Source: a virus (taxonomy: Duplodnaviria; Caudoviricetes). From it: DNA of 64,000 nucleotides. How positions within the stretch are numbered: the first letter of the stretch is position 1; each line of letters starts with the position of its first letter. The translations under genes were made by a program, and so were the position numbers. Below, piece after piece: positions 3-41,203 of this stretch. The stretch lies in IMG/VR virus record IMGVR_UViG_3300025640_001000. One strand, given 5' to 3'. Below the pieces are notes generated by a model. That model did not search any database. It was not told where the DNA came from and saw only the letters and a program-made list of their open reading frames with translations.

Positions 3-911
3 ACAAGTCTTGTTTGGTTTGGAGACGCAACTTCTAAATGCGAACAAATCGATATCTTAAACTTCAGAGATGAAATTACATCAGTTTATTATGTAGAAGA
101 TTCAAATACAAATTTGCTTGCTTCAAAAAAATCATCTCTTGCTACAATTTCAACTAGATACCGATACCTTGACGCAGGTGCTGGTGGTTTAATTTTCGTT
201 TCGGATACCTCATTGGTATTGGATGACGTGGTTAAAAGTTATTTAAACGAAGATGCTGGTAGAATAATTCCAACATACATTGAACGATTTGAAACATCAG
301 GTACCATACCTGGTACATTCGTAATGACATCCGAATTCAAAAACAAAAAACCTGTATATAAAAACACAGATTATCAATGGTATATTTGGTACGATGAATC
401 AGAATCTGTGTGGATTGCGTCTGAAGATGCAGTTTCAAAAGATAAAACATTTTTAAAAGGTGATACTTGTTTGCCAAATTTTCAGAATTATACCAATGAT
501 TCTTTTTCATCTCATCTTATTACTACACAAAATTGGGATTGTCTTGAAGTTGATGAATTAAATGGAGTAGTTGAATCTGCAAATGGAATTTATTGTCAAA
601 CTGCAACATACAATGAACATCCTGCGTATGTAAGTTGCAATGGAGCATGGTACATTTATTTTGATTTAATAACATGGGTATTAACTGATTCACCATATAA
701 TCGTGAAGGTATGTGGTTGATAAATGGAAGTACATCCGTGTATACCAAATTCAATAATGTAGCAGGTGGAAACGGAAGTTCTTCGTTCAACAATCAAACG
801 GCAGTTGTTAAGTCAATGGGTATTCCTGCAGGTGCTTTAATGGTTGAAGATGGTGAAGATATATTGTTCACAGAAAACGATAATACAGCCGTTACAGGTG
901 AAGGTACTTGA
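3..911 (+). CDS. 5'-truncated modular virion-type protein: degenerate WYG module, two small beta-rich repeats and a C-terminal L-x-x-EDG motif
   Basis: The frame is open from base 3 (TSLVWFGDATSKCEQIDILNFRDEITSVYYVED), upstream of the 114 call, and matches the YNLVWYGDC...VFQI N-terminus of 7939. Two repeats of G-x-(F/Y)...N-x-(K/H)P-x-Y...WYI(W/Y)..W; ends GALMVEDGEDILFTE. Confidence 0.7.
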   Translation, partial: TSLVWFGDATSKCEQIDILNFRDEITSVYYVEDSNTNLLASKKSSLATISTRYRYLDAGAGGLIFVSDTSLVLDDVVKSYLNEDAGRIIPTYIERFETSGTIPGTFVMTSEFKNKKPVYKNTDYQWYIWYDESESVWIASEDAVSKDKTFLKGDTCLPNFQNYTNDSFSSHLITTQNWDCLEVDELNGVVESANGIYCQTATYNEHPAYVSCNGAWYIYFDLITWVLTDSPYNREGMWLINGSTSVYTKFNNVAGGNGSSSFNNQTAVVKSMGIPAGALMVEDGEDILFTENDNTAVTGEGT

Positions 912-951
912 TCAGCATTACAATTATTGAGTATATTTTAATATAGCACTG

Positions 952-960
952 ATATTTATA
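952..960 (+). promoter_or_regulatory. putative late-promoter motif ATATTTATA
   Basis: Lies 11 nt upstream of ATG 972; the same motif recurs upstream of about 10 genes in the window. Confidence 0.45.
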
Positions 961-971
961 TATTTAGTGTT

Positions 972-3900
972 ATGAATCTTCCCTCAAAAAATGCTCGTAA
1001 AATGTATATGGCTGCGGCCAGTAAAGGCAAATATCAGTATGTATGTGACTGCTCTTTGTATGAATCGTGGGACGGCTATAAAGACAACCCAGGTGAAATA
1101 AAGTATTCACTTCTTATAGATGATAATCCACTTAATGATGTTTCTCAAGTGGGTGATAGAATACTTGAAACTAGTGTTGAGATATTTGATGATAGTGTTT
1201 TCAACAAAATCGTATTCAATTATTTTGGTCATAGTGAGCAAAAGAAATCATTTATTATAAAATATGTGTGCTTCGTTGATGTAAACGGAAATTGTCTTCC
1301 TGTGGATATCAAGGATATTGTAGGACGAGCATACAGAAACACCAAACGTGACACTTATACATCGTTACCTGTAGGTAATGGAGTTAATTTGTTTTCAACA
1401 GGAGAAGCATCACTTGGAACTCAGTCAACTTTAAATTATGGATGTGAAATTGAAGTAACATTCAAAAATAGATTAAGATACAGAGATGTAAAAAAGATCA
1501 TGTGGCATTATTACACAGATGATCCTGCAGGAACTAAAAAAGTTTCAATTGGTAGCAACTTTAATTTATACAAAGATGGTGATGTTGTTGTGCATGGAGA
1601 TAATGTTTGGTCAGCATATGGAGATATAAATGATCCAGATGACGAACCAGGTACATCAATTCACTGGGAGTTTTTGTGTTCATGTGAACGAGATGAATTT
1701 TATTGTCCTGAATATACACCAACACCCACTCCAACACCAACACCCACTCCATCACCAACTCCATCACCTACACCAACTCCAGAAGAAGTAATATGTTGGT
1801 GTGATGAACATCCACGATGGATTGCTATGGATTATGCTTGGAAATCTGTGGTGTCGCACGAAGGATACATTTATCAAGCAACTGATTATCAAGGAACAGA
1901 GGCTGCTGATGTACCCGGAACTTCAAATCACTGGTTTCAAGTGTGTCGTTGTTTAGAAGAATGTTATCCAACTGAAATATGTGTTAAAATGGAAGAAGCA
2001 ATTGGTTGGAATTTGGGTATTAGTCATACTCCTGATTTATTTCCAACACCAACACCAACACCAACTCCTGCGATTTGTAATCCAGTTTCTCATCAACTTG
2101 GTGGAAGCAAGCAATACTCTCATGCAGGTTCACATGAAAATGCATACGATGGAGATTCACAAACTGCAACGGGTGACTATAAATGTTGGTGGTCAGGTTC
2201 TTCAATCAATTCTACTGCATGGGTAATTTATACATTTGATGAACCATTAACAGGACAAACATTAGAAATTGATATTGATTTGTATATAAGTGGTGGAAAC
2301 GGAAACACGGCAAACTTCTTGGTAGACTACAAATCCACAAAAGAGTCAAATTGGATTCAAATATGGAAAGCAGATGATTATTCTGTGCTAACCAGAAAAC
2401 GCATGACTTGGGATGTTGACTTAACAAACAAAACCGTTTATCAAGTTCGTGTGTGGACTCAAGACACCAAAAACAATGCACCTTCATTCCGAGTATTTGA
2501 TATAGGAGTTAAAAATTGCTTCGTTGAATCGTGTGAACCAAGAGAACTGGATTGTCAGAATTTATCGTTTCATTTACAAAGTAACAGTGAAGATGATAAT
2601 GTGGAATTTACTGACGAAAGTCTTAATAACCTTGAAGTTGATAGAATTGGTAATGCTCATCATTCAAGTGATAAAACTTTATTTGGAAGAACTTCTGTTT
2701 ATTTTCCAGTTGGAACACGAATTGACATACAATCATCTGACGATTTAAAAATTGGTACAGACGAATTTACAATAGATGCGTGGGTTTACATTACAAATAC
2801 CCGAACAGGAACAAATCCACCGAGTTACTCAGACAGAGCAATTGCCGGAACATTCTCTGGTAATGGTGGACGAGGAGCAGGTTCTGCGTGTTTCCTTTTT
2901 CTTGAAAACAAAACAAATAATTTGTGTTTTTGGGATGGTGTAAGTCAAAAAACAGGAAACATGGTGATACAACAAAATGCGTGGACTCATGTTGCAGTAT
3001 CCCGACATTCTGGAGTATTAAGATTGTTTGTTGATGGTCAACAAGCACTCACCGAAAATCATTCGGTAAATTTATCAGGCAACGCAGGATGGTCAATCGG
3101 TGGAGCAAGAACAATCAATCCAACATTAACGAACCGATGGTTTGATGGATATATTCAAGATGTTAGAATCATAAAAGGAACTGGATTATATAGTTGTGAA
3201 TTTGATCGTCCAATTGCATTAAGTTCAATTTGCAGAAATGTTCCAAATCCTGTGATTAAACTACTTGGTGAATCTTTAACAGAAAATAACAATGTATGGA
3301 ACAATTCAGCATCCACTTCGTATCATGCTAACATCAAAGGATCACATCAAAAGATTTTTACGAATTGTGGAGGAGTTCAATTTGCAAATACAGGTGGTTT
3401 CATTGAAATGAGCAATTACGGAGCAAATCCTCAGACATTAACATTTGAAACAACATTTGCAATCGAATCAACAAAAAATGTAACACAAGGTTCAAGTACT
3501 GCTGATCGTCAGTATATTGTATTTCAACAAAATTCAAGAACCACATCGTTTGAAGGATTTTCACTTCAATATTATGAGTCATCTGAAAGTTTGACATTAG
3601 TTGCAACGAATCCTCATACACGTGAGCAACATCTTGTTCGTACACCCGAAGGTTTAATTACTGTTGGATCATTGGTTCATGTGGTGTGTGTACTTGAAAT
3701 TGACAAAATGCACATTTATGTAGACGGCCGCATGGAAGCAACTGGAAGAAAGTGGTCAGGTGGTATTGATTATAGTTCAACTCACAAACTTACCCTTGCA
3801 AGAGCAAATCCAAGAGGAACGGTATACGATGGTTATATGAATGGAACTATATACGAATTTTCATTGTTTGAAACCGCATTAACTGATGTAGAAGCAGCTG

Positions 3901-4952: not shown

Positions 4953-7937
4953 ATGGCAGATAATTGTTTAGGCACCAGTGCAGATTTGGAATTTACTCGT
5001 AACAACGGACTACCGAGGTTTAGAGGAAAGGACCGTTATATAAATGCCGTTAGATTTGTTTATGCTGGTAATGCAACTTCACCCAAACATTTTAAAACAA
5101 AATTCTTTGCAATGTATCGTGGAGAATCAGAAGTTTCGTTGAGAAATTATGTTCTTATTGATCCACTTGCATCCGAGCAACAACATTCGTATTGCACAGG
5201 TTGGAAAATTAATAATGGTTCTCATGGACTAAGTGGAGAATCAGATTCTATATTTGAAGAAAACGAAGATTCATGGGGAATACCTGGAACAGGATGTGGA
5301 GGATATTTTACATTGTTTTTTAAAGACCCAATTGATATGTCAGGTATCACCAAAATGAAATGGAGATACGAAACAGGAGACGAATGTGGTTCACGGGCAG
5401 TTACATTCAGAAGTGTAGATGTTGGTACAAGTATAAGTGGAACATATGTTCTTGCTGATCCTGAAAACAATTGGAAAAAACTTGCTGGTATTCAAGACGC
5501 ATCCAACTATAAAAATGTTGGTTATATTCAAAAGTTTGGTGAAAACAGAATATGTCAAAATCAAGCAAAAAAAGGAAACAGACGACCAGTTACTTCTAAA
5601 ATGCCTTTGTCAACTTTCAACTTTGCAGATGATGAATCTGAACCTGTGATGGTTTCATTGTCAACTGACATGGAAATGCCAGGATGTTGCACAGATTATG
5701 ACAATTCAATTATGACATTTGGTGACGGAATTGATCGTCATTCAGTTGGTGGAGTAAGTGTTCAGTATTTTGAAGAAGGTGGTAGATTGTGCTTTGATGA
5801 TATTACAATGGATGGATTAAGTAATCCATATGGTGTAAAACTAGAAATAGACGGAGAAACCGTATATGGAAAAATCAAAGCAACTGGTCAATTTAAAAAT
5901 AACGAAGTTGTGTATGTTTCTCCAAACGGAAATTATTATAGTGGAAAATTGATAAGCAAAACTGGATTTGATAACACATTACAGTTGGTAGGAACTTGTG
6001 TATCAGAAACTCCTGTGATTGAAGTTGGTGATCCACGACCTGTAATAAAATTACCTTCCACTAATTTAGATTTTATCAACAAAACATGGAACGATGCAAG
6101 TTTGCCTGCAATAAACGGAAGCATTGGAGGTAATGTTAGATTTCAAGATAGTAGATGTGGAGCAGGTGCTCGTTTTCGTGGAGATGGAGGTTATATAACA
6201 TTTCCAACCTACAATACACAACCACAAACATTAACACTTGATATGATGTTTGAAGTAAATGGTCAAACTGAATATTATGACGAACGCAATTTGATAAAAT
6301 ATGAAAATATTGATTTTGCTCAATCTGGAATTTACAACAAACAAGAAAAATGGAATGGATTTTCACCCGACAAAGATCAATGGAACAAGTTGTTAAAATC
6401 CGAAGAAAATGAACATTTAACTGATGACGATGAATTTGTTTATAATTCAAATGTAGATGTAAACGATTATCCAACTATGCAAGTGGTGGGCAATGCAACC
6501 ACTACTGATCCTGGTGGGGATTATCGTGGATTTGATTATCAGATAGTAGTTTCATTTAAAGAACCCATTTCTATAAAGAAAGGTTCTCGTCTTCATTTCA
6601 ACTTTTTACCACGAAATGTATTTTGGGGTTACAATCAAGGTGGTGCCCGTAACGCCGAGACCAACAAAATTAATATGTATGCCACGACTCTTCCTAAATT
6701 AGAATCATTGGCAACTAAACAAAATGAATGGTCTGGTTGTTCTTGTTGTCCTTATACAAGTTTTATATTCAATGAAAAATTAGGATATGCAGAAGCAACT
6801 GAAGATATAAATGATATTACGCACATTTCATCTGGACCTGTAACAATTTATGAAGGTTGTAACGGACGATACACATGGACTGCGGGTTTACAAGCACTTT
6901 CAATTATTCCTCCTGCAAAACAGAACTCTCAATATCTTGCATTTCAACAAAATACAACTATTGCACATCCCACAGGATATTATTTGGCATACAATCCAAC
7001 ATCAATTGGAGGTGGATCATTAGAAATGGGTGTTCAGTATCCAAATGGTTCTAAATTTAAATGTGAAACACTGGATGATTCTGTTATACTCAATGAAAGA
7101 ACTCATGTTCATGCGGTGTTTGGAGAAACTGATATGCAACTTTTTATAAACGGAGACTTGATGGTTGAAACTGAAAAGTCACGTGGAATTGATTATCATC
7201 CATCTCATAAATTGCATTTAGGAAGAGCAAGAGCAATCGGAACATCTTCTGATAGATTTTTAAATGGAACGATATATGAATTTGATTTTTATGAAACAGC
7301 ATTAGAATCTGCTTACATTTACAGATTGTTTATAAACAAAAAATGCGCTCCACCAAATCCGACACCAACTCCCACTCCAACTCCCACTCCAACACATACA
7401 CCCACACCAACTCCAATTATTGAAACTGAGTGTGTGGATCATAATGATGACAGAACATGGAGTTTATTGAATTCTAACTTTACCGCATACGGAAGCAATT
7501 GTATAACCGAGTCTGTGTGGGAAAATTCTGCAAGTAATGCTTGGAAAATAAATATATTATCTGATGATTGTGGAGAAATAATGTGTTGTACAGATGATAT
7601 GAATAGTTACGATGTGGGACCTGAAATTAATACAATCGTTGACGGAGAAAATCAAATTACGGTTGGTAAGCAACTTTATGAAGGTATGTTGTGTGTTGAC
7701 TCAGGACGTGGTGATATTGAACAACTTGTTATCAATGAAGTTACATTGTTTGTGTCAGACGCAAAACCAATTGGAACTATTATCTTCACCGGCCATGTAA
7801 ATAGTGATCCAACTCTATATTTATCAATAATGGACTCGGCGTACGCAGAAGATAATGGATATCCAAACTATAACGGAATGTGCTTGAAAGGTACAATTTC
7901 AAACGGTGAATGTAGATTAAAGGAGTTTAACGGATAA
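4953..7937 (+). CDS. modular protein: N-terminal beta module, CC module, LamG split by a CxCCP module, PT linker, C-terminal CC module
   Basis: [35 protein letters not shown]. The LamG halves align with the uninterrupted LamG in 972. Also GCSCCPY; ends MCLKGTISNGECRL. Confidence 0.8.
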   Translation: MADNCLGTSADLEFTRNNGLPRFRGKDRYINAVRFVYAGNATSPKHFKTKFFAMYRGESEVSLRNYVLIDPLASEQQHSYCTGWKINNGSHGLSGESDSIFEENEDSWGIPGTGCGGYFTLFFKDPIDMSGITKMKWRYETGDECGSRAVTFRSVDVGTSISGTYVLADPENNWKKLAGIQDASNYKNVGYIQKFGENRICQNQAKKGNRRPVTSKMPLSTFNFADDESEPVMVSLSTDMEMPGCCTDYDNSIMTFGDGIDRHSVGGVSVQYFEEGGRLCFDDITMDGLSNPYGVKLEIDGETVYGKIKATGQFKNNEVVYVSPNGNYYSGKLISKTGFDNTLQLVGTCVSETPVIEVGDPRPVIKLPSTNLDFINKTWNDASLPAINGSIGGNVRFQDSRCGAGARFRGDGGYITFPTYNTQPQTLTLDMMFEVNGQTEYYDERNLIKYENIDFAQSGIYNKQEKWNGFSPDKDQWNKLLKSEENEHLTDDDEFVYNSNVDVNDYPTMQVVGNATTTDPGGDYRGFDYQIVVSFKEPISIKKGSRLHFNFLPRNVFWGYNQGGARNAETNKINMYATTLPKLESLATKQNEWSGCSCCPYTSFIFNEKLGYAEATEDINDITHISSGPVTIYEGCNGRYTWTAGLQALSIIPPAKQNSQYLAFQQNTTIAHPTGYYLAYNPTSIGGGSLEMGVQYPNGSKFKCETLDDSVILNERTHVHAVFGETDMQLFINGDLMVETEKSRGIDYHPSHKLHLGRARAIGTSSDRFLNGTIYEFDFYETALESAYIYRLFINKKCAPPNPTPTPTPTPTPTHTPTPTPIIETECVDHNDDRTWSLLNSNFTAYGSNCITESVWENSASNAWKINILSDDCGEIMCCTDDMNSYDVGPEINTIVDGENQITVGKQLYEGMLCVDSGRGDIEQLVINEVTLFVSDAKPIGTIIFTGHVNSDPTLYLSIMDSAYAEDNGYPNYNGMCLKGTISNGECRLKEFNG

Positions 7938-7938
7938 A

Positions 7939-10509
7939 ATGGGAAAGTTAGATAAAGTATATAATTTGGTATGGTACGGAGATTGTGATGATCCAGATTG
8001 TCAGCCCGTAGATTTGTCTTTGTATAAAGACGACCTTGAGTTTGTATTTCAGATTTCTGATGTTAACTCGGGGTGGAAACATTGGTCATCAGCAACAGAT
8101 GCAATCAATCTCGGAGATTTTGCGGATTTGATATGTGGTGTGCCTTATATCATAAAGTTGACATCAGATGATAAAGTAAAACCAAATAAAGTAGTTGAAA
8201 TTCCTGGAGTTACTGTTGGTAGATTTGCAGATGATCCAACTGATGCTACTAGTAAACGAATAAGTGACAATTGTGTACCTGCAAAGTTTTGTACATTTGT
8301 GGTTGATAATGTTTTAACAAGCACATTTGATTTAACCATTTATATGTCTACGATAGATTCATATAGAACCAATAATTATATTCGTGGTTTTGAATTGTTT
8401 TTTGATAATGTTAAACTGAAACCCACAGGTACAATTTCGCATACTTTTCAAGAACGAGTTGCAACCGCAGTTAAAAATGATGACAATGAAGAAGAAGAAC
8501 TTTTTCGTGAACTTATCAAACGAACAAGTTCATTGGTTTCGTTTGATGAAGAAGGTGATACAACTTACAACAAATGGGGTTTTTCAGATTTAAGAAAGTT
8601 TAGTACAGGCATTTCGTTGAGCAACGAATTTCAGTCATCGTATAAATTTACCATTCCGTTTGATTCTATTGACGGTGAATTGAAAGTTAATAGTGCTAAC
8701 ATTTACGATACAACGGTTGGTCGTTACAAATTTGATTATGTATTGTGTGATGGTTACAAACCACCCACAAATCCAACCCCAACTCCAACTCAAACTCCAA
8801 CTCCAACAAGTGAGTGCATAAAACCAGACGATGAATATTGTGAAGAATTGGTATTTCATTTGCAAAGTAAAAATGAAACAGATGGTTCTGATGTGGTGAT
8901 TGATGCAAGTCTTAAAAATCATCCACTTGAATTTCCAAATGGAAGAATCAAGCATTCATCTGCCAGAAGAAAATTTGGGGAAAGCAGTTTTGATTTCACA
9001 GGAAACGAAGTTATCAAACTTCCTCAGTCAGAAGATTGGAGATTTCTTCAAGGACAATTTACGATTGATGCGTGGGTTTATGTAGATTCATTTGATGCTT
9101 CTAGTAACTTTACACGTGACAAAGCAATTTTTGCAAGTTTGGCAACTCAACAAATTATGTTTGGAATTGACAATAAAAGTGGAAAACTGATTATGTGGGA
9201 CGGACTTTTGCAAAAAAGTTCAGACGAAGCAGTTGTTGCACGAAAGTGGACTCATGTTGGTGTAACTCGTGACGGATCAATTCTTAGAATGTATATTGAT
9301 GCCAAGAAAGTATTTGAAGACAGAGAATATTCATCAAATTTTTACGAATCAAATAGTTTCAGTATAGGTGGAGCAATAGACTTTGATTCAGGAGATTCAA
9401 ATTACACAAGATTGTTTAATGGTTACATTAACGATCTTCGTGTTGTTAAAGGTGTCGCATTGTATACATCAGATAGATTTTGTGAATACGAAGACTTCCA
9501 TGAAGATTGTGAACATCCTCCGTCACCAACTCCAACTAAAACTGATGTTCCACCAGAATGTAATCCAGAACATTATACTTGCGAAACGAAAATTGAACCA
9601 AGCAATTTGTTTGATAACTTCACTAATTTCTATGGATTAACAGGAGTAAATTCTTCAGGAACGTATGCCGTAACCAACGAAGGATCAATTAAAAGTAATC
9701 TTGACAACACATTGACAATAGAAACGGTTGAACCTACGAGTGGTGATGCAAACATGGTTGCAGTATTTTCCGATGGAAATTATCAAATGACATCATTCTT
9801 TAAGCATTTTTGTTTGAGCATATTTGATTTGTCTTATTCTTCAACACAAGAAGTAACAAGTCATTTGGCACTTTATCAAACTGATACAATTTACACAATG
9901 GAAATTGCAACCGGTAACTCGTTTAATGATCCAACTATTCAACGAGGACCAGTGGTTGCTGAGTCGTTTGTTCGTAGAGTAGGAATGGGACCAGAGTATC
10001 CAATTTTATCAACAGGAAATCGTTTTAGAGTCGGATTGGCATTTTCAAGAACAGGAGTTCCTGTTGCATCTGAAATCGTTTTACAAAATGGTTTTGATAT
10101 TTGTTTGAGCAGAAATATGCTTTTTGTTCCTGATGACGAAACAACACCAACTCCAACACCTACGGTAACACCAGAAGAACCATTGAATTGTTGTATGGGA
10201 TTTGATTATCAGAATATTGAGGTTACTGCTGAAATGGCAGCTAGCACAAAGGCAGATGGACCTCCTGGAATTTCAATAAATGGATTTGAAGAAGGGGGTA
10301 TTGTGTGTATGAATGAACTTACCGAAACGGTGCAGACATTATCTTGTCCAGTTTCAACGGCCGACTTCACACTGTCCGGTATGATAACACTAGGTCAGAC
10401 ATCACCTGACAATAAACTAAGATATACATCTGTCGCAGGTGATTGTTATGAAGCAGATTTGGAACATAATCCAAGTGCTGGTTTTGTTTTATTAAATCCA
10501 ATAACATAA
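7939..10509 (+). CDS. modular protein: WYG module, cohesin-like domain, PT, LamG, beta domain, PT, CC module
   Basis: LVWYGDC..LICGVPYIIKL; YIRGFELFFDNVKL; FTIDAWVY..WTHVGVTRDG..FNGYINDLRVVKG; NCCMGFD..GFEEGGIVC. Confidence 0.8.
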   Translation: MGKLDKVYNLVWYGDCDDPDCQPVDLSLYKDDLEFVFQISDVNSGWKHWSSATDAINLGDFADLICGVPYIIKLTSDDKVKPNKVVEIPGVTVGRFADDPTDATSKRISDNCVPAKFCTFVVDNVLTSTFDLTIYMSTIDSYRTNNYIRGFELFFDNVKLKPTGTISHTFQERVATAVKNDDNEEEELFRELIKRTSSLVSFDEEGDTTYNKWGFSDLRKFSTGISLSNEFQSSYKFTIPFDSIDGELKVNSANIYDTTVGRYKFDYVLCDGYKPPTNPTPTPTQTPTPTSECIKPDDEYCEELVFHLQSKNETDGSDVVIDASLKNHPLEFPNGRIKHSSARRKFGESSFDFTGNEVIKLPQSEDWRFLQGQFTIDAWVYVDSFDASSNFTRDKAIFASLATQQIMFGIDNKSGKLIMWDGLLQKSSDEAVVARKWTHVGVTRDGSILRMYIDAKKVFEDREYSSNFYESNSFSIGGAIDFDSGDSNYTRLFNGYINDLRVVKGVALYTSDRFCEYEDFHEDCEHPPSPTPTKTDVPPECNPEHYTCETKIEPSNLFDNFTNFYGLTGVNSSGTYAVTNEGSIKSNLDNTLTIETVEPTSGDANMVAVFSDGNYQMTSFFKHFCLSIFDLSYSSTQEVTSHLALYQTDTIYTMEIATGNSFNDPTIQRGPVVAESFVRRVGMGPEYPILSTGNRFRVGLAFSRTGVPVASEIVLQNGFDICLSRNMLFVPDDETTPTPTPTVTPEEPLNCCMGFDYQNIEVTAEMAASTKADGPPGISINGFEEGGIVCMNELTETVQTLSCPVSTADFTLSGMITLGQTSPDNKLRYTSVAGDCYEADLEHNPSAGFVLLNPIT

Positions 10510-32188: not shown

Positions 32189-35100
32189 ATGGTACGATAC
32201 GGAGACATTGTAAATCCCAATGGAATACCTGATGCAAATGATGTACAAGCATTATTGAATTATATTAAACAAGGAACTTTACCTTCCGAGGGAAGCATCA
32301 ATTTTATTTTAAGTAACATCACGCAAAAAGAATCATATGTAGGTCCTGGTTTCTTTGAAGTATTATATTTAACAAAAAATCGCAACACCACAGACTATAC
32401 AGGTCCTGGTTATGAACTTGGTTTAGCATCTGGTAAAGGAAAAAGCATAGATGCAACCGAAAACAAGTTCATTGCATCATTTCCTTATGCGAAAGTCCAA
32501 AATTTATTTACAGACGATGAATATGCAGGTATCGCAAAAATTTATTCAAAAAATTTAGGAACAGGAAAATACGAAGAAAGTGATTTGCTTTTTCCAGATA
32601 CAATTACAAATCCTGATCCTGAAACGGGTGATGCACAACAAACAGTTGGAAATCATTTTCACTTTGGAGAAAATTCAGTTGCGATTGATGGTAACTTTGC
32701 CGCTGCATCTGCATTAGATGGTTCAAAACCTTATGTTTTTGTTTACGAAGATGATGGTACAGGATTTACACGCATTCATACTTTATCAAGTTTCAGTTCA
32801 AGTTCATCAGCTGCTCCAACGGTAGAAATTTCCGGTAATCGTTTGTTTGTTGGAGATTATACCAACAATAAAGTTTATGTTTATAGTATAATTTTACTGA
32901 AATCCTCGGACGAAGCTAGCAAAACAATAAGTATAGAAACTTCAACAGATGTGTCTTTGTTTGGTCAAACACTTGTATGTAAAGATGAAACTAATTTATT
33001 TATAGGTAATCCAACGGAACTGGTTGACTATTCATCACCGGTCGATTTTAAAGCAACAACGGGTGTTGTGTATCACTATGCATTTGAAACTAATGCATGG
33101 AATTTAAAAAACACATTGCTTCCGGTGTTTGCTTCCGAACCAAATGCAATAGACAATGCAGGAATGTATGGACCATCCGGAGGTGTGACCGAATATGATC
33201 TTGATTCAAAATTCGGATCGTATTTGGATGTCAAGGAGAAGGACGGTTCAACAATTTATGTAGCAGTAGGTTCACCCAATTGGTATCAAGATTCAAATGC
33301 AGAACAACTTGATAATCGTGAAGGTGCTATTTTTGTATACGAAGTTACTACATCAAGTGCGACTTTAATAAAATCAATAACCAAATCGTCTGTGGCAAGT
33401 GGTTCTGTTCTGGTCAACTATGAATTGGGTACAGGTGTATCATTGGGTGAAAATTACCATTTATATTCAATTTACAACAAAGATGAAGGATCGATATTAA
33501 AATTCAATTCATCGGTAGATGACGGAACTCGTAACTGGGCAACTGGTGCTGAATTGATTAATTTGCAAAACGCAGGACTTACGGGTGGTGATCTTGCCAT
33601 AGATTCCACCGACTTGGTATACGGAAATGCAATAGCAACAAATTCATTGCGAGTAGTTTATACAGGTGCTTCCAACGATGTTGGTACATTCTCAAAATTG
33701 AATTTAAGAAAACTTAATTTGTCTGCTTCATTTCTTAAAAAAAATAATGAGTTGAAATCATTTTCAATTAACAATGTTCCTGCGTGTTGTGATGGATTTG
33801 AAAATAGCATAAGCACACATGGAGATGGAGATGAACGACCAAATGTTGCGGGAATAAGTGTTCAGTTTTTTGAAGATGGTGGTAGTTTGTGCTTTCACAA
33901 TTTAAACATTGATGGTTTAAGTAATCCATATGGTGTTCGTATTGACATGGGCAACAAAGTTGTTTACGGAAAAATAAAAGCAACCGGTAAATTCCAAAAC
34001 AACGAAGTGCTTTATATTTCACCTACACAAAAGAAATATCGTGGACAACTTACAAGCAATTCAGGATTTGAAAACATTTTAGCATTTGAAGGAAATTGCA
34101 CTGTAGAACCAACTCCAACTCCAACTCCAACAAATGATGGAGTGATTGATGACGCAACACCACAAACTCCAACACCAACTTCTGAGTTGATTGAAACACC
34201 AACTCCCACTCCAATTGTTTACGAAACCACTAAAAATCTGTTGGAAATTCATAACATTGATATGAATAAAACGGGATTGTATAATCAACGTCAAAAAATT
34301 GCTTCTATAAACGGAGATTTGGAAACGGCAATCAACGCAGATAAAAATGAATATATTCAATTCAATTCAGATACAGGTCAATACGACTTTGTATATGATG
34401 CTAATATCAACTTGGCAAAATATCCGTCTGTGTCAGTCGCAGGAGGTTCTGGTGGATTTGCATATCAACTTATAATTGCTTTAAAACAACCCATCACAAT
34501 TCCAAAAAATTCAAAAGTAAATGCACACTTTGTTCCTATTAATGTGTCGTTTGGAACTGCCGGTGGTGCAAAAAATACTCAAACAAACAAATCACCAATG
34601 TCAGGATCATCTACATTGGAACTAGAATCACTGAGTGCAACTGCTCACACTTGGCCTGGATGTGTATGTTGTCCATTTTATTCGTTTGCATTAGAAGAAA
34701 ATCTCGGAAGTTCAGTTGTTCAAAAAGATTATATAAGCATAAAATATTTAGCAATAGGAGGATTTGTCGGAGGATGCAACGGAAAACCAAATTACTTTGC
34801 TAGATTGCAATCAATTGCAATTACTAGTCCTGACATCAAACCACCCACTCCAACACCCACTATAATAGAAACTTGTACAGAATTGGAACATTGTGACAAT
34901 GTTTCTTTGAATATTCAAAGTACAAACAAAACCGTATTTGAACTTGTTCAAGATGCATCTTTGAATGATTTTAAATTTCGTCATATGAACGGAGTTCGTT
35001 TCAATGAAAATGATGCGTTGTATGGTGATACCTCAATGTACTTTGATGGTGAAGATGATTATTTGTTGTCAGATGATATGGGAAATGCAGAACCACTTCA

Positions 35101-38100
35101 GTTTGAACAAGATGACTTTACAATTGAAACTTGGATTAAGTTAGAACCTGCTCCGACTCCCACACCAACTCCCACACCAACACCAACTCCTACCGCTACA
35201 CCGACTTTAACTCCAACTCCGACTTTAACTCCAACTCCGACTTTAACTCCAACTGCGACCGTTACTCCAACTGCGACTTTAACTCCAACTCCAACCGTTA
35301 CTCCGACTGCAACGGTAACTTCAACTGATACTACCCCACCGACTCCGACACCCACACCAACAGAAACTCCATCTCCAACAGAAACTGTAACACCAACAGA
35401 AACTCCAACTGCAACCAGAACAACTTCATATACACCAACTCCAACAGGTACTCCATCACCAACCGGTACTCCAACTGCAACAGGTACTCCAACCGCAACA
35501 CCTTCTGAAACTCCAACACCAACTTGGAATCCATATAATTGCCCAATACAAATTGGAGATACCTTAGATGGCACAGACAACAGAGAACGTTTTGGAGAGA
35601 TTGCAACTATATCTTCTTCTGGAGACCGAGTGGCAATAACTTCTGTGTGGAAGAAAGTTGGTGAAAATCCATTCATGGGTGAAGTTAAGGTATATGAATC
35701 AACTGCTCCTGGTGAAACTCAATCTTGGATGCAACTAGGAGAAACTATAACAGGTGACAATTCAACTTCGGAAAGCAGTTCATTTGGTTCTTCACACGAA
35801 TTTGATAAAACTGGTGAGATACTTGCAATTGGTCACGAAAACTCTTCAACCAGAGAAAGTCCAAGTCAATTAATCAGTAACCACGGAAAAGTTAGAATAT
35901 ATAAATACAAAACGGTTACTTCCACGGAATGGAATTTATCAAATGTGTTGGATACCAATACTTCTGATAAACCTATAATTGTTAATCATGGCAAACCATA
36001 TAGTGCGAGTAAAAAATATTGGGTACAACTTGGTGGTGATTTGGGAGGAGTTTCGTCTAGTCAGGCAGGAGACGGATTTGGTAAGTCAGTTTCATTGAGT
36101 GACGATGGCAATATGCTTGTGGTTGGTTCACCTGGTGATTCGGGTACTGGAGGAAAAAAAGGAACTGGTCGTATCAATGTATTTCGTTTTCAAAACAACG
36201 AATGGCAAGACGCAGGTGATATACCAGGTAACAAAGATATACCTGATACCGTATCAACTGTTGGTAACTTTTTCGGTAATGCAGTTAAACTGAGTGGTGA
36301 TGCGTCAACATTGATAGTGGGCGCACCCCAAGGAACTCAATCAGGACCAGGTTTCATCCGTATTTTTGCTCATTCGCAAAATAATTTAAATGTAGATATA
36401 TGGACTAAAATAGGTTCTTTCGCAGGCACCTCAGATGGTCAGGGATATGGTACAGATATTTCGTGCAACTCAGATGCAACAGTTGTCGTAGTGGGTTCAC
36501 CTTACTTCAACGATTCTACCGGTAGAGTATACATTTATACAAAATCAGGTAATTCATATACAAATTCCAAAATTATTAACGGAATGCACAGTAGTTCTTT
36601 GTTTGGCAGATCAGTTGATTTAAATGAAGATGGAACGATACTTGTAGTGGGTTCACCTAATATGAACTCACGAGATTCAATTAAAACTGGTGCATCTTTG
36701 ACATATGAAAATGATGGAGTAACGTGGAATTTAATTGCAGTAACCGAGGGTGATTCCGATGATGATCTCTCCGGTACATCGGTTGGGATTAGTTCAACTG
36801 GAAAAACAATTGTGGTTGGTTCGTCCGAAAACACCACCACCTCACCAACTGGTGATCTAAACACAGGATATGCAAATGTATACGATTTGAATTGGTGTAC
36901 TGATTGGAATAACGATGGAAAATTTGGTGCAACTTCATTAAAAGCAATGTCTCGTACAACCAAGTTTGATGTGACTTCGTTTTCAACTTCAGATACATTG
37001 GATGTATTAAGTTCCGACAACATTGATTTGGAGTTATCGGGATTATACAACAAACAAAGAAAAATAGCATCATTTACAGATGGAACAATAAACAATGCAG
37101 TTTCAGCAGAACAAAACGAATTTTTGCGATACAACAATCAAACAGGACATTATGATTTTAATTACTCTGCTGATGTTTCTCTTTCACAATTTCCATATGT
37201 ATCTGAACCAGAAGGTGAAGGTGGATATCATTATCAATTGATTATTGCACTTAAAAATCCGATTCGCATTCCAAAGGGTGCTAAAATAAATGCAAACATC
37301 GTACCCACCATCACAGACTGGGCAGGATCAGGACAAGAGTTGTATAAAAATATGGAAACCAATGTGGTTCCTGTTAAAGCATCATCTCATGTTTCGTTGG
37401 AAACGATGCCATACAATTCGTTATCATGGACAGGATGTGTATGTTGTCCGTTTACTGCATATAAATTTGAACACAACCTCGGAAGTTCAGTTGTTCAAGG
37501 TGATTATGAAGAAGTTAGATTTTTAATGATTGATCAGGTTCTTAATGGATGCAATGCAAAACCTTCATATGAAATGAGATTGCAATCTTTGTCTATAAGA
37601 AATCCAAATCCAATTCAAACAACCAATCAAGGATGTTGTGATGAATTTACAAATCGCATAGATACATACGGAGATGGTGCAGATCGTCCCTCAGTTGAAG
37701 GTGTAAGTGTGCAATGGTTTGAATTGGGTGGTAGTTTATGCTTTCACGATGTAATAATTGATGGTTTAAGTAATCCATACGGAGTTAAAATTAATGTTGA
37801 TGGAAATACCGTTTATGGAAAAATAAAAGCAACCGGAAAATTCAAAAATAATGAAGTAGTTTATGTATCACCAAACGGATCATATTATCGTGGTAAATTA
37901 GAATCATCTCAAGGATTCAGTAATTCATTGATTTATGTGGGTGAGTGCAAATCAACCGAATTGCTTGATCGTGGATTGTCGTATCCGATTTTTAATATCG
38001 GAGGAGCAGCTGCATTAACATATGAATCGGAAAGTCGTGAACTTAGATTTCTTGAAAATTATTCGTTGGACACAACTCATAAAGTTGATGTAGGAATTGA

Positions 38101-41100
38101 ACAAAACACATGGACACATCTTATGGTGTCTCGTCATAATAATTTGATGTACTTTTATGTTAATGGAAAGCAAATTGGTGAACCATTGCAAAACGATATT
38201 TATTATGGTTATCCAACAAAACTCGAAATTGGCAGAGGATTAAACTACGAAAACAAATTAACTTATTTCAGAGGTTACATTGATTCACTTAAAATTGTTA
38301 AACGTCATGTAAAATATGGATGTGAATTTGAACCTGGATATTTTGGAAATTGTGAAAGTGATGTACTTCCAACTCCAACTCCAACTCCAACTCCCACACC
38401 AACTCCCACTCCAACTCCGACACCAACTCCGACTCCTGTTCCTGAAAAGACATTAAGAATTTATAGTAACTATAAAGATACTGCAAATATAGTGATCGTC
38501 AACGGAAAGCAAACACAAGTTGATGACTTTTATGAATTTTCCTTGTTACCTGGATCTAAAATTGAATTTATTCCAACTACAAATCATTCATACATTTTTA
38601 AACAATTGCATGGTGATACAAGTTGGTTGATTAAAAATAAAGGTGTTATGCCCAATTATGATGTAGATATTCGTTTTGAATATGCAACATATGATCCCAA
38701 AGATTACATGACTAATTGTGAAGATAAATGTCCATGTGATGAACCAGAATTTGAAAAACCGATAAATGTTGTACCAAATCCAAGGCAATCATTGATCTTC
38801 CACGAACATTTGGATCAAAAGAAAGTATTTGAACGAGATGAAGAATTTGAAGCATCATTACCAGGAACACCTGGTATCACGTGTGAGTATGAAGTGGGTA
38901 TGCGAGTTAGTGGACCGATTATCCGAAATTCAAAAACCGATAGTGCATATATTTGGAGAGACTTGATATTAATAAGAAACAACAAATATGTTTTTAATTT
39001 TGAAAATAACGAATCTATTATCAAATTGTACGACAAACATGGTGTAGAACTAACTGAATTACAGGGAGTGTATTCTTCGGAAGAGTGGGTATATCCTCTT
39101 ATAGTTATGCCAAACGACAGAACTCCTGATTTCATAGAATACAGATTATTTGAAAAAGATATGGGTCACGGTGATATTATGGTTAAAAACTTAAACCACA
39201 TTGCTGGTTTGGTTACTGCGTACAATTATGTATTTGGTTCAAAAACAGAGATTGCAATTGAAAATGGAGAACTACTAACTAGTTCACGTAAAAATGGTGT
39301 ATACTACGTAGGAATAACTGAGTATGTAGATTTAAACGAAGTATCTATAACTTCATCAAGTGGTCAGGAACCCAATTTACAAGAAACCAATAGTTTAAAT
39401 TACAAGAATGTTTCTGGATATCTGGATACAAACTTGATAACTACAATGTTCTCAGAGTTGCTTGTGGAAGTGGGCAATTACAGAAAAACTCATATAGAGT
39501 TGTCAAGATTCTTGGGACTTCGTCCTGGTAAGAACTTATTAAAATTAGATTATATGAGTACATTTATGTGGACAGACCATTTAAATTTACATGAGTTGAC
39601 CAAAATTTTACTTTTAAATTTATTGTTTGAATATGCTCACAAATTTAATCAGTTTGATAAACTAATGGAAATTCTAATAAATCGTATTACAAAATCAAAT
39701 CAATCATTTAAATACGAAGACGATTATTATATCAAAGACTTGCTTACCTCCGCAGAATTGGATGCAAGATTCGCAGAAGTTTTCTCAGTTGTGTATGTAA
39801 AGATTATCGGTAACATACATTCTGAAGACGGTCTTGGTAATTTATATTCATCTATAAAACTCATTAAAACTGAGATTCTAAACAAAGAAAATTATTCTGT
39901 TTATATTTTCCATGATAAATTCCGTGAAAACATGAACTCACTTTCTTACTTAGGAACATCTCAGTTGATGATGCCTGAGTATGTTTTATTAAGTTCCGAG
40001 AGATGTACAAATTCTCAACTTGGTAATTACGTGATAAAGAAATTTGATGACTTGCTTACGCATCCGATGTTTAATAAAAACGAACCATCTGATAAGATGC
40101 TGAAACACATGACACATCAAACATTAAGAATATCAGCATTCAAACAATCTTTTTGTTATACTATACTACCTGTTCCATATAATTTGTATGGTATTTACGA
40201 TGACATAGAATCATATCAAATTCTTGACAATTACGATGATGCAGATGATTGTTGTGAGATTGTCAGTATCAATGAAACTTACATGGATAATGTAAAACCA
40301 CAAATTCAAGAAAATGAAGTGGGTATCTTCAAATTTATCGAAGCAGGTACTTCGTACAAAATGCTACATTTCCCAATCACCACTTTCAATTTACCTGTGG
40401 AAAAAATAAATCATAATCGTTTTCGTGTGTATATCGATGCGAAAATTGATTTAACGCAAGTTTCACATTCAGTTCCTGGATACATAACAACTTCAAGAGG
40501 AACTGCAAGTAATCTTGGATTCAAATCTATTGATGTAGGATACAATTCAAATCATCATAAACGTGAAGTGCATAACACTCAACTTGCAAGAGAAACCGTA
40601 TCAATTCTTACCACTTGGATGATGCAAGATGGATATTTGAATATTGTAACAGATACATCAATTGAATTACAAATCGGTCAATTTATTACAATTCGCAACT
40701 CAACCAACAACTCAGTTCTCAACGGAACACATCGTATAAGTGAGGTATCAAACAATTCGTTTGTAATAAACTTTAGAGTTCCTGTGAATATGACTATGGC
40801 TGATATGCAAAATACTACTGCCGAATTTGATATGCTTACATTCACAAAAATTTATTGTAATGTTGAGGGTCTTGTAGTTGGAGATGAATTGGTGTTTGAT
40901 TATGCAAGTGGCAACGGAAAAACATTTCCAATTGTTGGTGTATCACAAGATGATGCTGGGGTTTATGCTTTGATTGATGGAGTTCTTGACCACGAACCTA
41001 GTTTCGTTATCAAAAGTGGTTATGACATAGAACCAGAAAATCATGTAATTTTTACCCATGAAGGAAGAAGCACTTATTACGAAGTAACCAACACAGACAT

Positions 41101-41203
41101 TCTCAAAGAATCATTGTGGTTGAGTCATTTACCAGATTCAACGGATGAAGGTAGATTTGGTAATACTGTTTCGTTCATTGAGATATTTATTAACGACATT
41201 TAA
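32189..41203 (+). CDS. 3004-aa giant modular protein: N-terminal dockerin-like loop, 2 FG-GAP-like beta-propellers, 2 CC modules, 2 CxCCP modules, split LamG, long PT linkers, C-terminal structural region
   Basis: [23 protein letters not shown]; seven FG-x-(S/A)V-x-(L/I)S-x-DG-x-x-(L/V)VVG(S/A)P-type blades; GCVCCPF x2; FTIETWIK ... [26 protein letters not shown]. Confidence 0.8.
35147..35524 (+). repeat. about 126-aa Pro/Thr mucin-like linker containing tandem 18-bp units (CCGACTTTAACTCCAACT)
   Basis: [14 protein letters not shown] x3..PTATVT..TPT in the translation; tandem DNA units are visible at about 35200-35300. Confidence 0.9.
38369..38443 (+). repeat. (PT)n linker
   Basis: [25 protein letters not shown]. 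Confidence 0.9.

Follow-up and report, generated by a model that had tools for sequence, protein, structure and literature searches.

The window, a stretch of 64,000 nucleotides of viral DNA, encodes P0001, a modular protein in which two parts of a LamG domain lie ~940 residues apart (Table 1). The segment between them contains a Pro/Thr (PT) linker of 126 aa, FG-GAP repeats, a CxCCP module and a CC module, as the initial annotation had described. Its further claim of a propeller with seven blades is plausible from the sequence: five stretches over ~480 aa of the insert region were matched by the Pfam model FG-GAP_2, and the blade number is left at plausible because model confidence in this region was low. 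CC and CxCCP modules also occur outside any LamG, namely in P0001 itself, in the product of gene 4953 (p4953) and in the b-type proteins described below. At the DNA level CC modules 1 and 2 of P0001 were 74% identical, and CC modules in general shared 72-78% identity over 220-250 bp. Searches of Pfam and PHROG with CxCCP module 2 gave no match, nor did a Pfam scan of the whole protein match CxCCP module 1. The conserved tail had no match in Pfam, PHROG or the ESM Atlas; distant members of the tail family are P0137, P0141 and P0142. In a close relative the N-terminal head forms a separate protein of 739 aa (P0131), and in P0137 the head is joined straight to the conserved tail. Architectures vary among close relatives (P0131, P0319, P0294 and P0137); in one close relative, truncation or recombination has produced the variants P0131 and P0319.

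Table 1. Layout of the gene encoding P0001 and position of the second interrupted LamG domain in the window.
Feature	Coordinates	Strand	Description and basis
Whole gene, P0001	32189..41203	+	One uninterrupted frame, 3004 aa; modular, fiber/adhesin-like
N-terminal head, aa 1-520	32189..33748	+	Dockerin-like YGDI..D.N motif and first FG-GAP-type propeller region, read from sequence
CC module 1, aa 521-637	33749..34099	+	57% identity with CC module 2 (compared over aa 1797-1920 of P0001); 45-65% with CC modules of relatives
CxCCP module 1, aa 681-882	34229..34834	+	46% identity with module 2; 49-53% with b-type CxCCP modules
LamG N-half, aa 896-986	34874..35146	+	Two edge cysteines, FDGxDDYL and FTIETWIKL strands; HMM, blastp, model
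PT linker leading out of LamG, 126 aa	35147..35524	+	79% P+T+S
FG-GAP repeat region 2, aa 1113-1600	35525..36988	+	Probable beta-propeller; Pfam FG-GAP_2, E 6e-13
CxCCP module 2, aa 1603-1807	36995..37609	+	blastp: 46% to module 1, 31% to p4953 module
CC module 2, aa 1811-1920	37619..37948	+	Abuts C-half directly; 60-71% identity with CC module opening d-type proteins
LamG C-half, aa 1925-2056	37961..38355	+	WTHL, FYVNGK, [11 protein letters not shown] strands; two edge cysteines; Pfam, HMM, model
Conserved C-terminal tail, ~920 aa	38441..41203	+	45-52% identity with d-type proteins
Gene 4953, LamG of other subtype	6033..7345	+	Single CxCCP module (~6294-6917) in equivalent loop; alignment A7

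The two parts were confirmed to be complementary pieces of one Laminin_G_3 domain. Pfam, blastp and a custom HMM agreed on the split that had been proposed initially, with the N-half running to ~35146, where it ends in [10 protein letters not shown] (aa 986), and the C-half starting at ~37961. Against Laminin_G_3 (PF13385) the whole protein scored 41.2 bits (gathering cut-off 27.6), a score carried by the C-half, which matched profile positions 45-143 (46-143 in the whole-protein scan; E 1e-9) over the gathering score; the N-half alone matched positions 2-27 (E 0.03, 14.8 bits) under it. In blastp the N-half aligned to residues 528-605 (E 8e-8) and the C-half to residues 637-745 (E 5e-12) of p972, an intact paralog. 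It had been suggested that the joined halves be aligned with the LamG domains of genes 972 and 7939, that the full segment be modeled with AlphaFold and that homologs lacking the insert be sought. The joined halves gave a single collinear HSP with p972 (528-745, E 1e-19) and likewise one with p7939 (299-525, E 2e-13). A custom HMM, which was built on 46 intact LamGs, matched P0001 in two places without overlap (hmm 5-66 at aa 921-986, E 2e-10; hmm 85-189 at aa 1939-2047, E 1e-15), and the intact paralogs over positions 1-189. All 44 of the 44 intact viral LamGs aligned to residues 5-87 and ~1030-1152 of the segment. At the break p972 and p7939 have a loop of ~20-30 aa, short as had been stated, and P0133 and P0120 are homologs of this kind, intact and with a short loop at the break position. 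Hallmark residues of LamG are present in both halves (F57, T83, E85 and W87 in the first, W1080, G1098, G1134 and Y1135 in the second, in segment numbering). A PDB sequence search with the profile of the intact LamGs returned only one weak match, 4qvs. Longer LamG matches in IMG/VR (L026, L029, L034, L046, L053 and L067), considered as further inserts, were rejected, as they are tandem LamG repeats.

Since the PT-coding repeat at 35146-35500 might have made the assembler join two unrelated genes, the junctions were examined in short-read contigs that come from four further studies of marine metagenomes. PT-linker DNA occurs in metagenomes as a repeat of high copy number; at 35146-35205 the sequence depth was some ten times higher, and numerous contigs stop or branch at this point, as an assembly chimera would have it. 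Against this, junction 1 was crossed by contigs of four independent studies (X10 record 1, covering 34500-35230, X11 record 8, X16 record 22 and X12 record 17), as was junction 2 (X10 record 6, X11 record 12, X12 record 17 and X16 record 28). One of these, X12 record 17, covers 35117-38700 unbroken except for a PT repeat at 38360-38445 that was skipped by the aligner. The stretch was moreover found in 20 runs from 17 studies. Misassembly, which had been named initially as the outcome that would overturn the split, is excluded by these independent short-read contigs, and a chimera is highly improbable.

To model the domain, AF2 was guided by an alignment in which intact LamGs span the gap (A6). 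The N-half was modeled with a pLDDT of 64-95 and the C-half with 88-95, while the insert was poorly modeled (pLDDT <50). In the prediction both halves pack into one ConA-like jelly-roll sandwich. The model matched 5hon_B with a Z of 20.1 (VIA-align; 189 of 206 residues aligned over model range 5..1155, rmsd 2.7 A) and 8byp_X with a Z of 20.5 over 203 residues. Structural matches to complete ConA-like domains reached Z 16-20 over ~185-204 residues and covered both halves; the C-half by itself accounts for just ~125 residues. Because the alignment spanned the gap, the model demonstrates compatibility and is not proof of folding. With the halves forming one domain in the model, the ~940 residues between them would be a closed side loop, so that the giant loop and branched fiber proposed in the initial annotation are reasonable as a prediction.

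Relatives were found in which the two halves are encoded on different proteins. N-half-only proteins (b-type) form four protein clusters and have the architecture CC-CxCCP-N-half-PT-cargo, and C-half-only proteins (d-type) form five, with the architecture CC-C-half-PT-conserved tail. Both types occur at one locus of contig L001, where gene b encodes only the N-half (hmm 4-69) and gene d, following it, only the C-half (hmm 84-189); no further LamG piece was present in any of the six frames of this contig. Residues 13-485 of the b protein were 44% identical to residues 517-985 of P0001, and residues 16-631 of the d protein were 47% identical to residues 1816-2421. Since proteins of the window and of L001 share 40-47% identity, synonymous sites are saturated between them. 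Other N-half-only proteins are P0005, P0007 and P0128/P0299, and other C-half-only proteins are P0125, P0126, P0317 and P0318. L001 is the one locus at which b and d were seen together directly. P0299 and P0315 likely constitute a second b/d pair, as both have a longest contig of 28,360 and share a TARA sample. Scans of viral contigs found no b-type relatives and, for the d-type, only generic LamG matches (L002 and L003); none was found in the bacterial and archaeal genomes scanned. The existence of relatives with only one half or the other, and of both as separate genes in L001, is new. The description of the LamG as a Russian-doll insertion thus captures the nested split of P0001 and is incomplete for the family, in which the halves also lie on different proteins.

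Modules are shuffled intensively at the PT and CC repeats of this locus, and therefore some half-domains could be tolerated debris. On this account the LamG pieces would be left over from recombination and would not reassemble, being disordered or tolerated while the other domains are functional. The high copy number of PT-coding DNA, the similarity of the CC modules, the differing architectures of close relatives and the score of the isolated N-half under the Pfam threshold would all fit. However, eleven b- and d-type proteins were tested (nine 90% clusters), and every one of them shares with P0001 the profile position of the break. The hallmark residues and the core strands are retained in the halves. 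Conservation of the orphan halves is close to that of the domains adjoining them, at 40-70% divergence: identity of the N-half was 43, 60 and 99% compared to 49, 73 and 98% for CxCCP, and identity of the C-half was 68-69% compared to 54-69% for the tail, in both cases without indels. Together with the order of b and d in L001 and the co-varying numbers of edge cysteines, this makes debris an unlikely explanation of the halves.

The edge cysteines were counted at the N- and C-edges of the domain. On one chain, counts were (2,2) in P0001, P0004 and P0133, (1,1) in P0120 and (3,2) in the scanned window of P0003, in which we read the third N-side cysteine as lying upstream of the conserved pair. 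Across separate genes the L001 pair had (2,2) and the likely pair P0299/P0315 (1,1). This matching suggests that disulfides probably staple the edge cysteines of the two halves to each other. The idea cannot hold for all members, because the d-type protein P0125 lacks edge cysteines and the b-type protein P0005 has a single one.

Taken together, the b/d split, the L001 locus, the conservation without indels and the matching cysteine counts argue that the LamG is probably a clasp, acting within the chain in P0001 and between chains in the relatives, rather than a host domain that passively received an insert. We consider it reasonably probable that a LamG made of two chain segments closes a giant loop here and that its separate-protein version fastens a cargo protein to a tail protein in the relatives. 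P0001 would then be a giant modular fiber or adhesin of a huge marine phage, in which strands of aa 896-986 and of aa 1925-2056 meet as a single beta-sandwich, probably stapled by disulfides between the two N-edge and two C-edge cysteines. The closed loop of ~940 residues, comprising the PT tether, the FG-GAP propeller, the CxCCP module and the CC module, would hang off the fiber as a side arm. In relatives two chains would build the sandwich together, and a cargo-bearing b-type protein would be fastened to a tail-bearing d-type protein, an association we infer. A bolder version, which we put forward tentatively and hold to be possible, is that the LamG halves are a dedicated snap-fastener, locked by edge disulfides outside the cell, which joins interchangeable cargo proteins to a conserved tail protein, P0001 being the same fastener closed in one chain. 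The one-gene and two-gene forms may have arisen by fission, or by fusion when CC or PT repeats recombined.

As the two-gene relatives imply, halves on different chains are able to meet, and the N-half of one P0001 chain could accordingly pair with the C-half of another, giving chains or networks of fibers and no closed loop. The 126-aa PT tether and the bulky insert permit either geometry. Effective concentration, however, favors pairing within the same chain, with which the single-chain model is compatible, and such a domain swap appears rather improbable to us.

The clasp that we favor has partial counterparts in known systems. Jumbo phages have multi-protein, branched receptor-binding fibers built from separately encoded adhesin parts; the joints known to us in such fibers are made by anchor or adaptor domains at the N-terminus that are dedicated to this role, and not by the halves of a single lectin-type domain. 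LamG/ConA-like jelly-rolls, such as AbnA domain 4 (5hon), TSPN (1za4), CBM40, the pentraxins and the lectin-like subdomain in the binding domains of clostridial neurotoxins, have a common profile, hallmark residues and predicted fold with the domain of P0001. In contrast to these, its chain is discontinuous after the FTIEAWIKL strand, being interrupted by ~940 residues or, in relatives, by a gene boundary. The LamG halves resemble the MPT-type split of fungal FAS, in which one folded domain is likewise encoded by one gene or by two; in both systems the occurrence of both states among relatives implies that the pieces assemble. Fungal FAS is an enzyme complex whose co-translational assembly was shown experimentally, whereas the LamG is a predicted beta-sandwich of a virion fiber, known from sequence and model, and unlike in FAS its pieces on the b side are not at chain termini.

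Pea and lentil lectins are two-chain proteins. As proposed for the LamG, the ConA-like sandwich of legume lectins stays one domain despite a chain break in a loop, but these breaks result from proteolysis after folding of the precursor, whereas the break in the LamG is genetic. Concanavalin A is processed to a circularly permuted legume lectin (10.1101/2020.10.28.360099). In the lectin domain of calnexin and calreticulin, the P-domain is inserted mid-sequence in a ConA-like beta-sandwich (PMC7687155). These proteins thus resemble the LamG of P0001 as ConA-like sandwiches that carry an inserted arm, and both calnexin (1jhn) and calreticulin (8xvf) were among the structural matches to the AF2 model. 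The calnexin P-domain is a hairpin of short repeats of ~100-140 aa, whereas the insert of P0001 comprises ~940 aa with several autonomous domains and a PT tether. We know of no split-gene calnexin, and a literature search combining LamG, domain insertion and phage found no paper.

If the halves reassemble, they are a naturally occurring beta-sandwich in two pieces, able to link segments or entire proteins with no need of a special docking domain. The way in which huge phages assemble and rearrange very large, branched adhesin fibers from modules would thereby be explained, and P0001 would serve as a "Rosetta stone" link, predicting binding partners among the separately encoded fiber proteins of related phages. 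Protein engineering could also gain a compact, possibly disulfide-locking split-domain pair. Should the halves indeed be a dedicated fastener, split-domain clasps could be a general assembly principle of giant-phage fibers. Reassembly would also caution against annotating a half-domain at the end of a phage ORF as the debris of a pseudogene by default.

A second interrupted LamG in the window, of another subtype and with its insert in the equivalent loop, is encoded by the neighboring gene 4953 and adds to the evidence for the clasp reading. In alignment A7 the intact LamGs of p972 and P0132 skip residues 88-295 of the p4953 segment, and CxCCP modules fill residues 84-295. An AF2 model of this segment from a 7-row alignment had a pLDDT of 52 with the N-half unfolded; in a fold search only its C-half aligned (Z <=6.6), and the CxCCP module gave only weak, CBM-like matches (Z 4.6). 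The insert is retained in P0129, the ortholog of p4953 (A7).

The split LamG domain lies within one uninterrupted ORF (32189..41203, 3004 aa) that encodes the fibre- or adhesin-like protein P0001, in a row of genes on the same strand with a G+C content of about 35%. The layout of P0001, obtained by self-comparison and Pfam, is listed in the table together with the genes of the metagenome contig L001. The initial annotation had proposed that an insert divides this LamG into two halves, which was borne out by Pfam, blastp, collinear HSPs and an HMM of intact domains. In the Pfam profile Laminin_G_3 the N-half covers positions 2-27 and the C-half positions 45-143. By blastp, residues 528-605 and 637-745 of p972, a window gene carrying an intact LamG paralogue, corresponded to the N-half and the C-half, respectively. 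When the halves were joined, they produced one collinear HSP each with the intact LamGs of p972 (E 1e-19) and of p7939, a second paralogue in the window (E 2e-13). From 80 LamG loci taken from IMG/VR, the 44 intact ones were aligned with a 1160-aa segment of P0001; in all 44 the first part fell on segment residues 5-87 and the second on approximately 1030-1152, and near-invariant residues of the family were found in N-half and C-half alike. A LamG HMM built from 46 intact domains matched P0001 twice (hmm 5-66, E 2e-10; hmm 85-189, E 1e-15) with 950 residues in between, and matched intact relatives over hmm 1-189. Six longer IMG/VR matches (L026, L029, L034, L046, L053, L067) were rejected as inserts, as they are head-to-tail tandem LamG_3 repeats.

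Layout of P0001 (residues) and genes of contig L001 (nucleotides)
Feature	Location	Remark
Dockerin-like motif and FG-GAP-type region	P0001 aa ~1-520	
CC module 1	P0001 aa 521-637	
PT (Pro/Thr) linker	P0001 aa 638-680	
CxCCP module 1	P0001 aa 681-882	
Short PT stretch	P0001 aa 883-895	
LamG N-half	P0001 aa 896-986	
126-aa PT linker	P0001 aa 987-1112	P+T+S = 79%
FG-GAP repeats	P0001 aa ~1113-1600	
CxCCP module 2	P0001 aa 1603-1807	
CC module 2	P0001 aa 1797-1920	
LamG C-half	P0001 aa 1925-2056	
PT linker	P0001 aa 2057-2084	
Conserved tail, ~920 aa	P0001 aa 2085-3004	window 38441-41203
Gene b	L001 415..6078	
Gene c	L001 6082..8340	unrelated, 752 aa
Gene d	L001 start 8397	preceded by AT-rich spacer

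Misassembly at the junctions, raised in the initial annotation as what could undo the split, was checked against contigs from four runs not marked as possible sources of the window DNA; the split-LamG stretch itself occurs in marine metagenomes of 17 studies (20 runs). Junction 1 (35146) was spanned by X10 record 1 (34500-35230), X11 record 8 and X16 record 22, and junction 2 (37961) by X10 record 6, X11 record 12, X16 record 28 and X12 record 17. The latter begins 30 nt ahead of junction 1 and continues across the entire insert and junction 2 as far as 38700, its sole gap being a PT repeat (38360-38445) skipped by the aligner. At 35146-35205 the PT-coding DNA is repeated in high copy; here the summed contig depth in four marine metagenomes rose about ten-fold and many other contigs branch, indicating that the same linker DNA occurs in many genes or strains. 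With both junctions crossed by contigs of four runs, the split LamG of P0001 is not an assembly artefact.

To address whether the halves form one domain, residues 896-2056 were modelled with AlphaFold2 using a 49-row alignment. The pLDDT was 64-95 in the N-half and 88-95 in the C-half; the insert, which had no alignment depth, stayed below 50. In a fold search against 48,161 PDB representatives the model matched complete single ConA-like domains across both halves (5hon_B: Z 20.1, rmsd 2.7 Å, 189/206 residues, model range 5..1155; 8byp_X: Z 20.5, 203 residues; 1za4: Z 16.2). Since the C-half comprises only about 125 residues, alignments of this length require both halves to be packed together. 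The model is homology-guided compatibility and no independent proof, because the alignment behind it, made of intact LamGs, extended across the gap. As an informal contrast, the segment of p4953, a window gene with a second interrupted LamG, was modelled with a 7-row MSA; here the pLDDT was 52, the N-half was unfolded and the fold search aligned about 110 residues (Z ≤6.6). It is rather likely that the halves of P0001 would reassemble into one domain.

The closest database relatives of P0001 are of two types. Proteins of the b-type (P0005; P0006 with P0292; P0007 with P0294; P0128 with P0299) usually have the order CC-PT-CxCCP-PT-LamG N-half-PT-cargo, the cargo being RCC1, ALK/LTK glycine-rich or discoidin-like domains; no C-half was found in them by Pfam or unfiltered HMM search. 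The d-type proteins (P0125, P0126, P0317, P0318 and the product of L001 gene d) consist of a short leader, a CC module, the LamG C-half, PT and the conserved tail, and lack the N-half. Both types occur in one locus on the 10.3 kb contig L001, where a six-frame HMM search found no LamG pieces beyond those of b and d. The AT-rich spacer (8341-8396) ahead of gene d, which begins with the CC module and C-half, contains TATTTATAGATAATG. Residues 13-485 of b align with P0001 517-985 (44% identity) and residues 16-631 of d with P0001 1816-2421 (47%), so that P0001 is a 'Rosetta stone' joining in one chain two proteins of its relatives.

The main rival explanation is that the halves are remnants of recombination. 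The profile position of the break (66-72 / 84-85) is shared by all b-types, d-types and P0001. Decaying debris is argued against by the orphan halves, which are free of indels in b-b and d-d comparisons and are conserved about like their flanking domains: N-halves are 43%, 60% and 99% identical between b-types (flanking CxCCP 49%, 73% and 98%), C-halves 68-69% between d-types (flanking tail 54-69%). The initial annotation had read P0001 as a 'Russian doll'; the interruption by an insert was confirmed, but in view of the b- and d-type relatives passive insertion is less well supported than a two-piece clasp. Such a clasp would work within the chain in P0001 and probably between chains in the relatives.

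In this subfamily, intact and same-chain LamGs have as many cysteines directly ahead of the first strand as directly behind the last one, namely (2,2) in P0001, P0004 and P0133 and (1,1) in P0120; in P0003 the scanned span gave (3,2), one additional N-side cysteine lying upstream of the pair that is conserved. In the L001 b/d pair the count is likewise (2,2). P0299, a b-type with one Cys, and P0315, a d-type with one Cys, both have a longest contig of 28,360 and share a TARA sample, which suggests that they are a pair. This pattern, taken from small numbers of sequences, is consistent with disulfide staples joining the N-edge to the C-edge, which in the two-gene form would link two proteins covalently. 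Such a staple could not be universal, as P0125 has no edge cysteine and P0005 one.

In gene 4953, which has a different LamG subtype, a single CxCCP module interrupts the equivalent loop. Precisely this stretch is missing from the intact versions in p972 and P0132, and the orthologue P0129 retains it. This second insert indicates that the loop is permissive and has repeatedly served as an insertion site. At the DNA level the three CC modules of the window (5733-5950, 33785-34023, 37634-37872) are 72-78% identical over 220-250 bp, and PT-linker DNA (e.g. 35151-35523, 38368-38447, 7353-7425) is repeated with 76-93% identity; both are plausible substrates for module shuffling between relatives. 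In a close relative (CC1 98% identical) the first ~650 aa of P0001 (window 32189-34130) stand as a protein of their own, P0131 (739 aa), which diverges after the PT linker and has a different end. On the same 94,723 bp ENA contig, the p4953 orthologue P0319 ends at 472 aa, shortly after entering the CxCCP insert. P0131 and P0319 may be genuine recombinants or truncations, or else reflect frameshifts in their assembly. In the distant relative P0137 a P0001-type head is joined directly to the tail without any LamG, and in P0294 the leading CC module has given way to a hydrolase-like domain, another sign of head swapping at PT linkers; by eye this domain resembles a serine hydrolase (GYSQGA motif). 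Together, the repeats and the rearrangements in P0131 and P0137 indicate that CC/PT recombination could join a b-like and a d-like gene into one, or separate them, and either the one-gene or the two-gene form could be ancestral.

Discontinuous domains are common. ConA undergoes cleavage and religation within a loop (10.1101/2020.10.28.360099), and the MPT domain of fungal fatty acid synthase, encoded by one gene or split over two, assembles between chains (PMC6972935). P0001 differs from such cases in its fold (a LamG sandwich), in how large its insert is and what it is composed of, in its setting in giant-phage fibres and in that a one-gene and a two-gene form exist side by side. A literature search combining LamG, domain insertion and phage found no paper.

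The conserved tail of P0001 had no match in Pfam, PHROGs or the ESM Atlas. It represents a conserved family with varying N-terminal attachments, standing directly behind a head with dockerin-like and propeller parts in P0137, almost by itself in P0142, P0144 and P0145, and ahead of dockerin-like repeats in P0141. Downstream (window 42956-63851) lies a long row of ~250-aa genes, which include NodZ-like, Galactosyl_T/Fringe-like and Nucleotid_trans glycosyltransferases, sulfotransferases and an NAD-dependent sugar epimerase. Glycosylation of PT linkers in the fibre proteins by these enzymes is conceivable.
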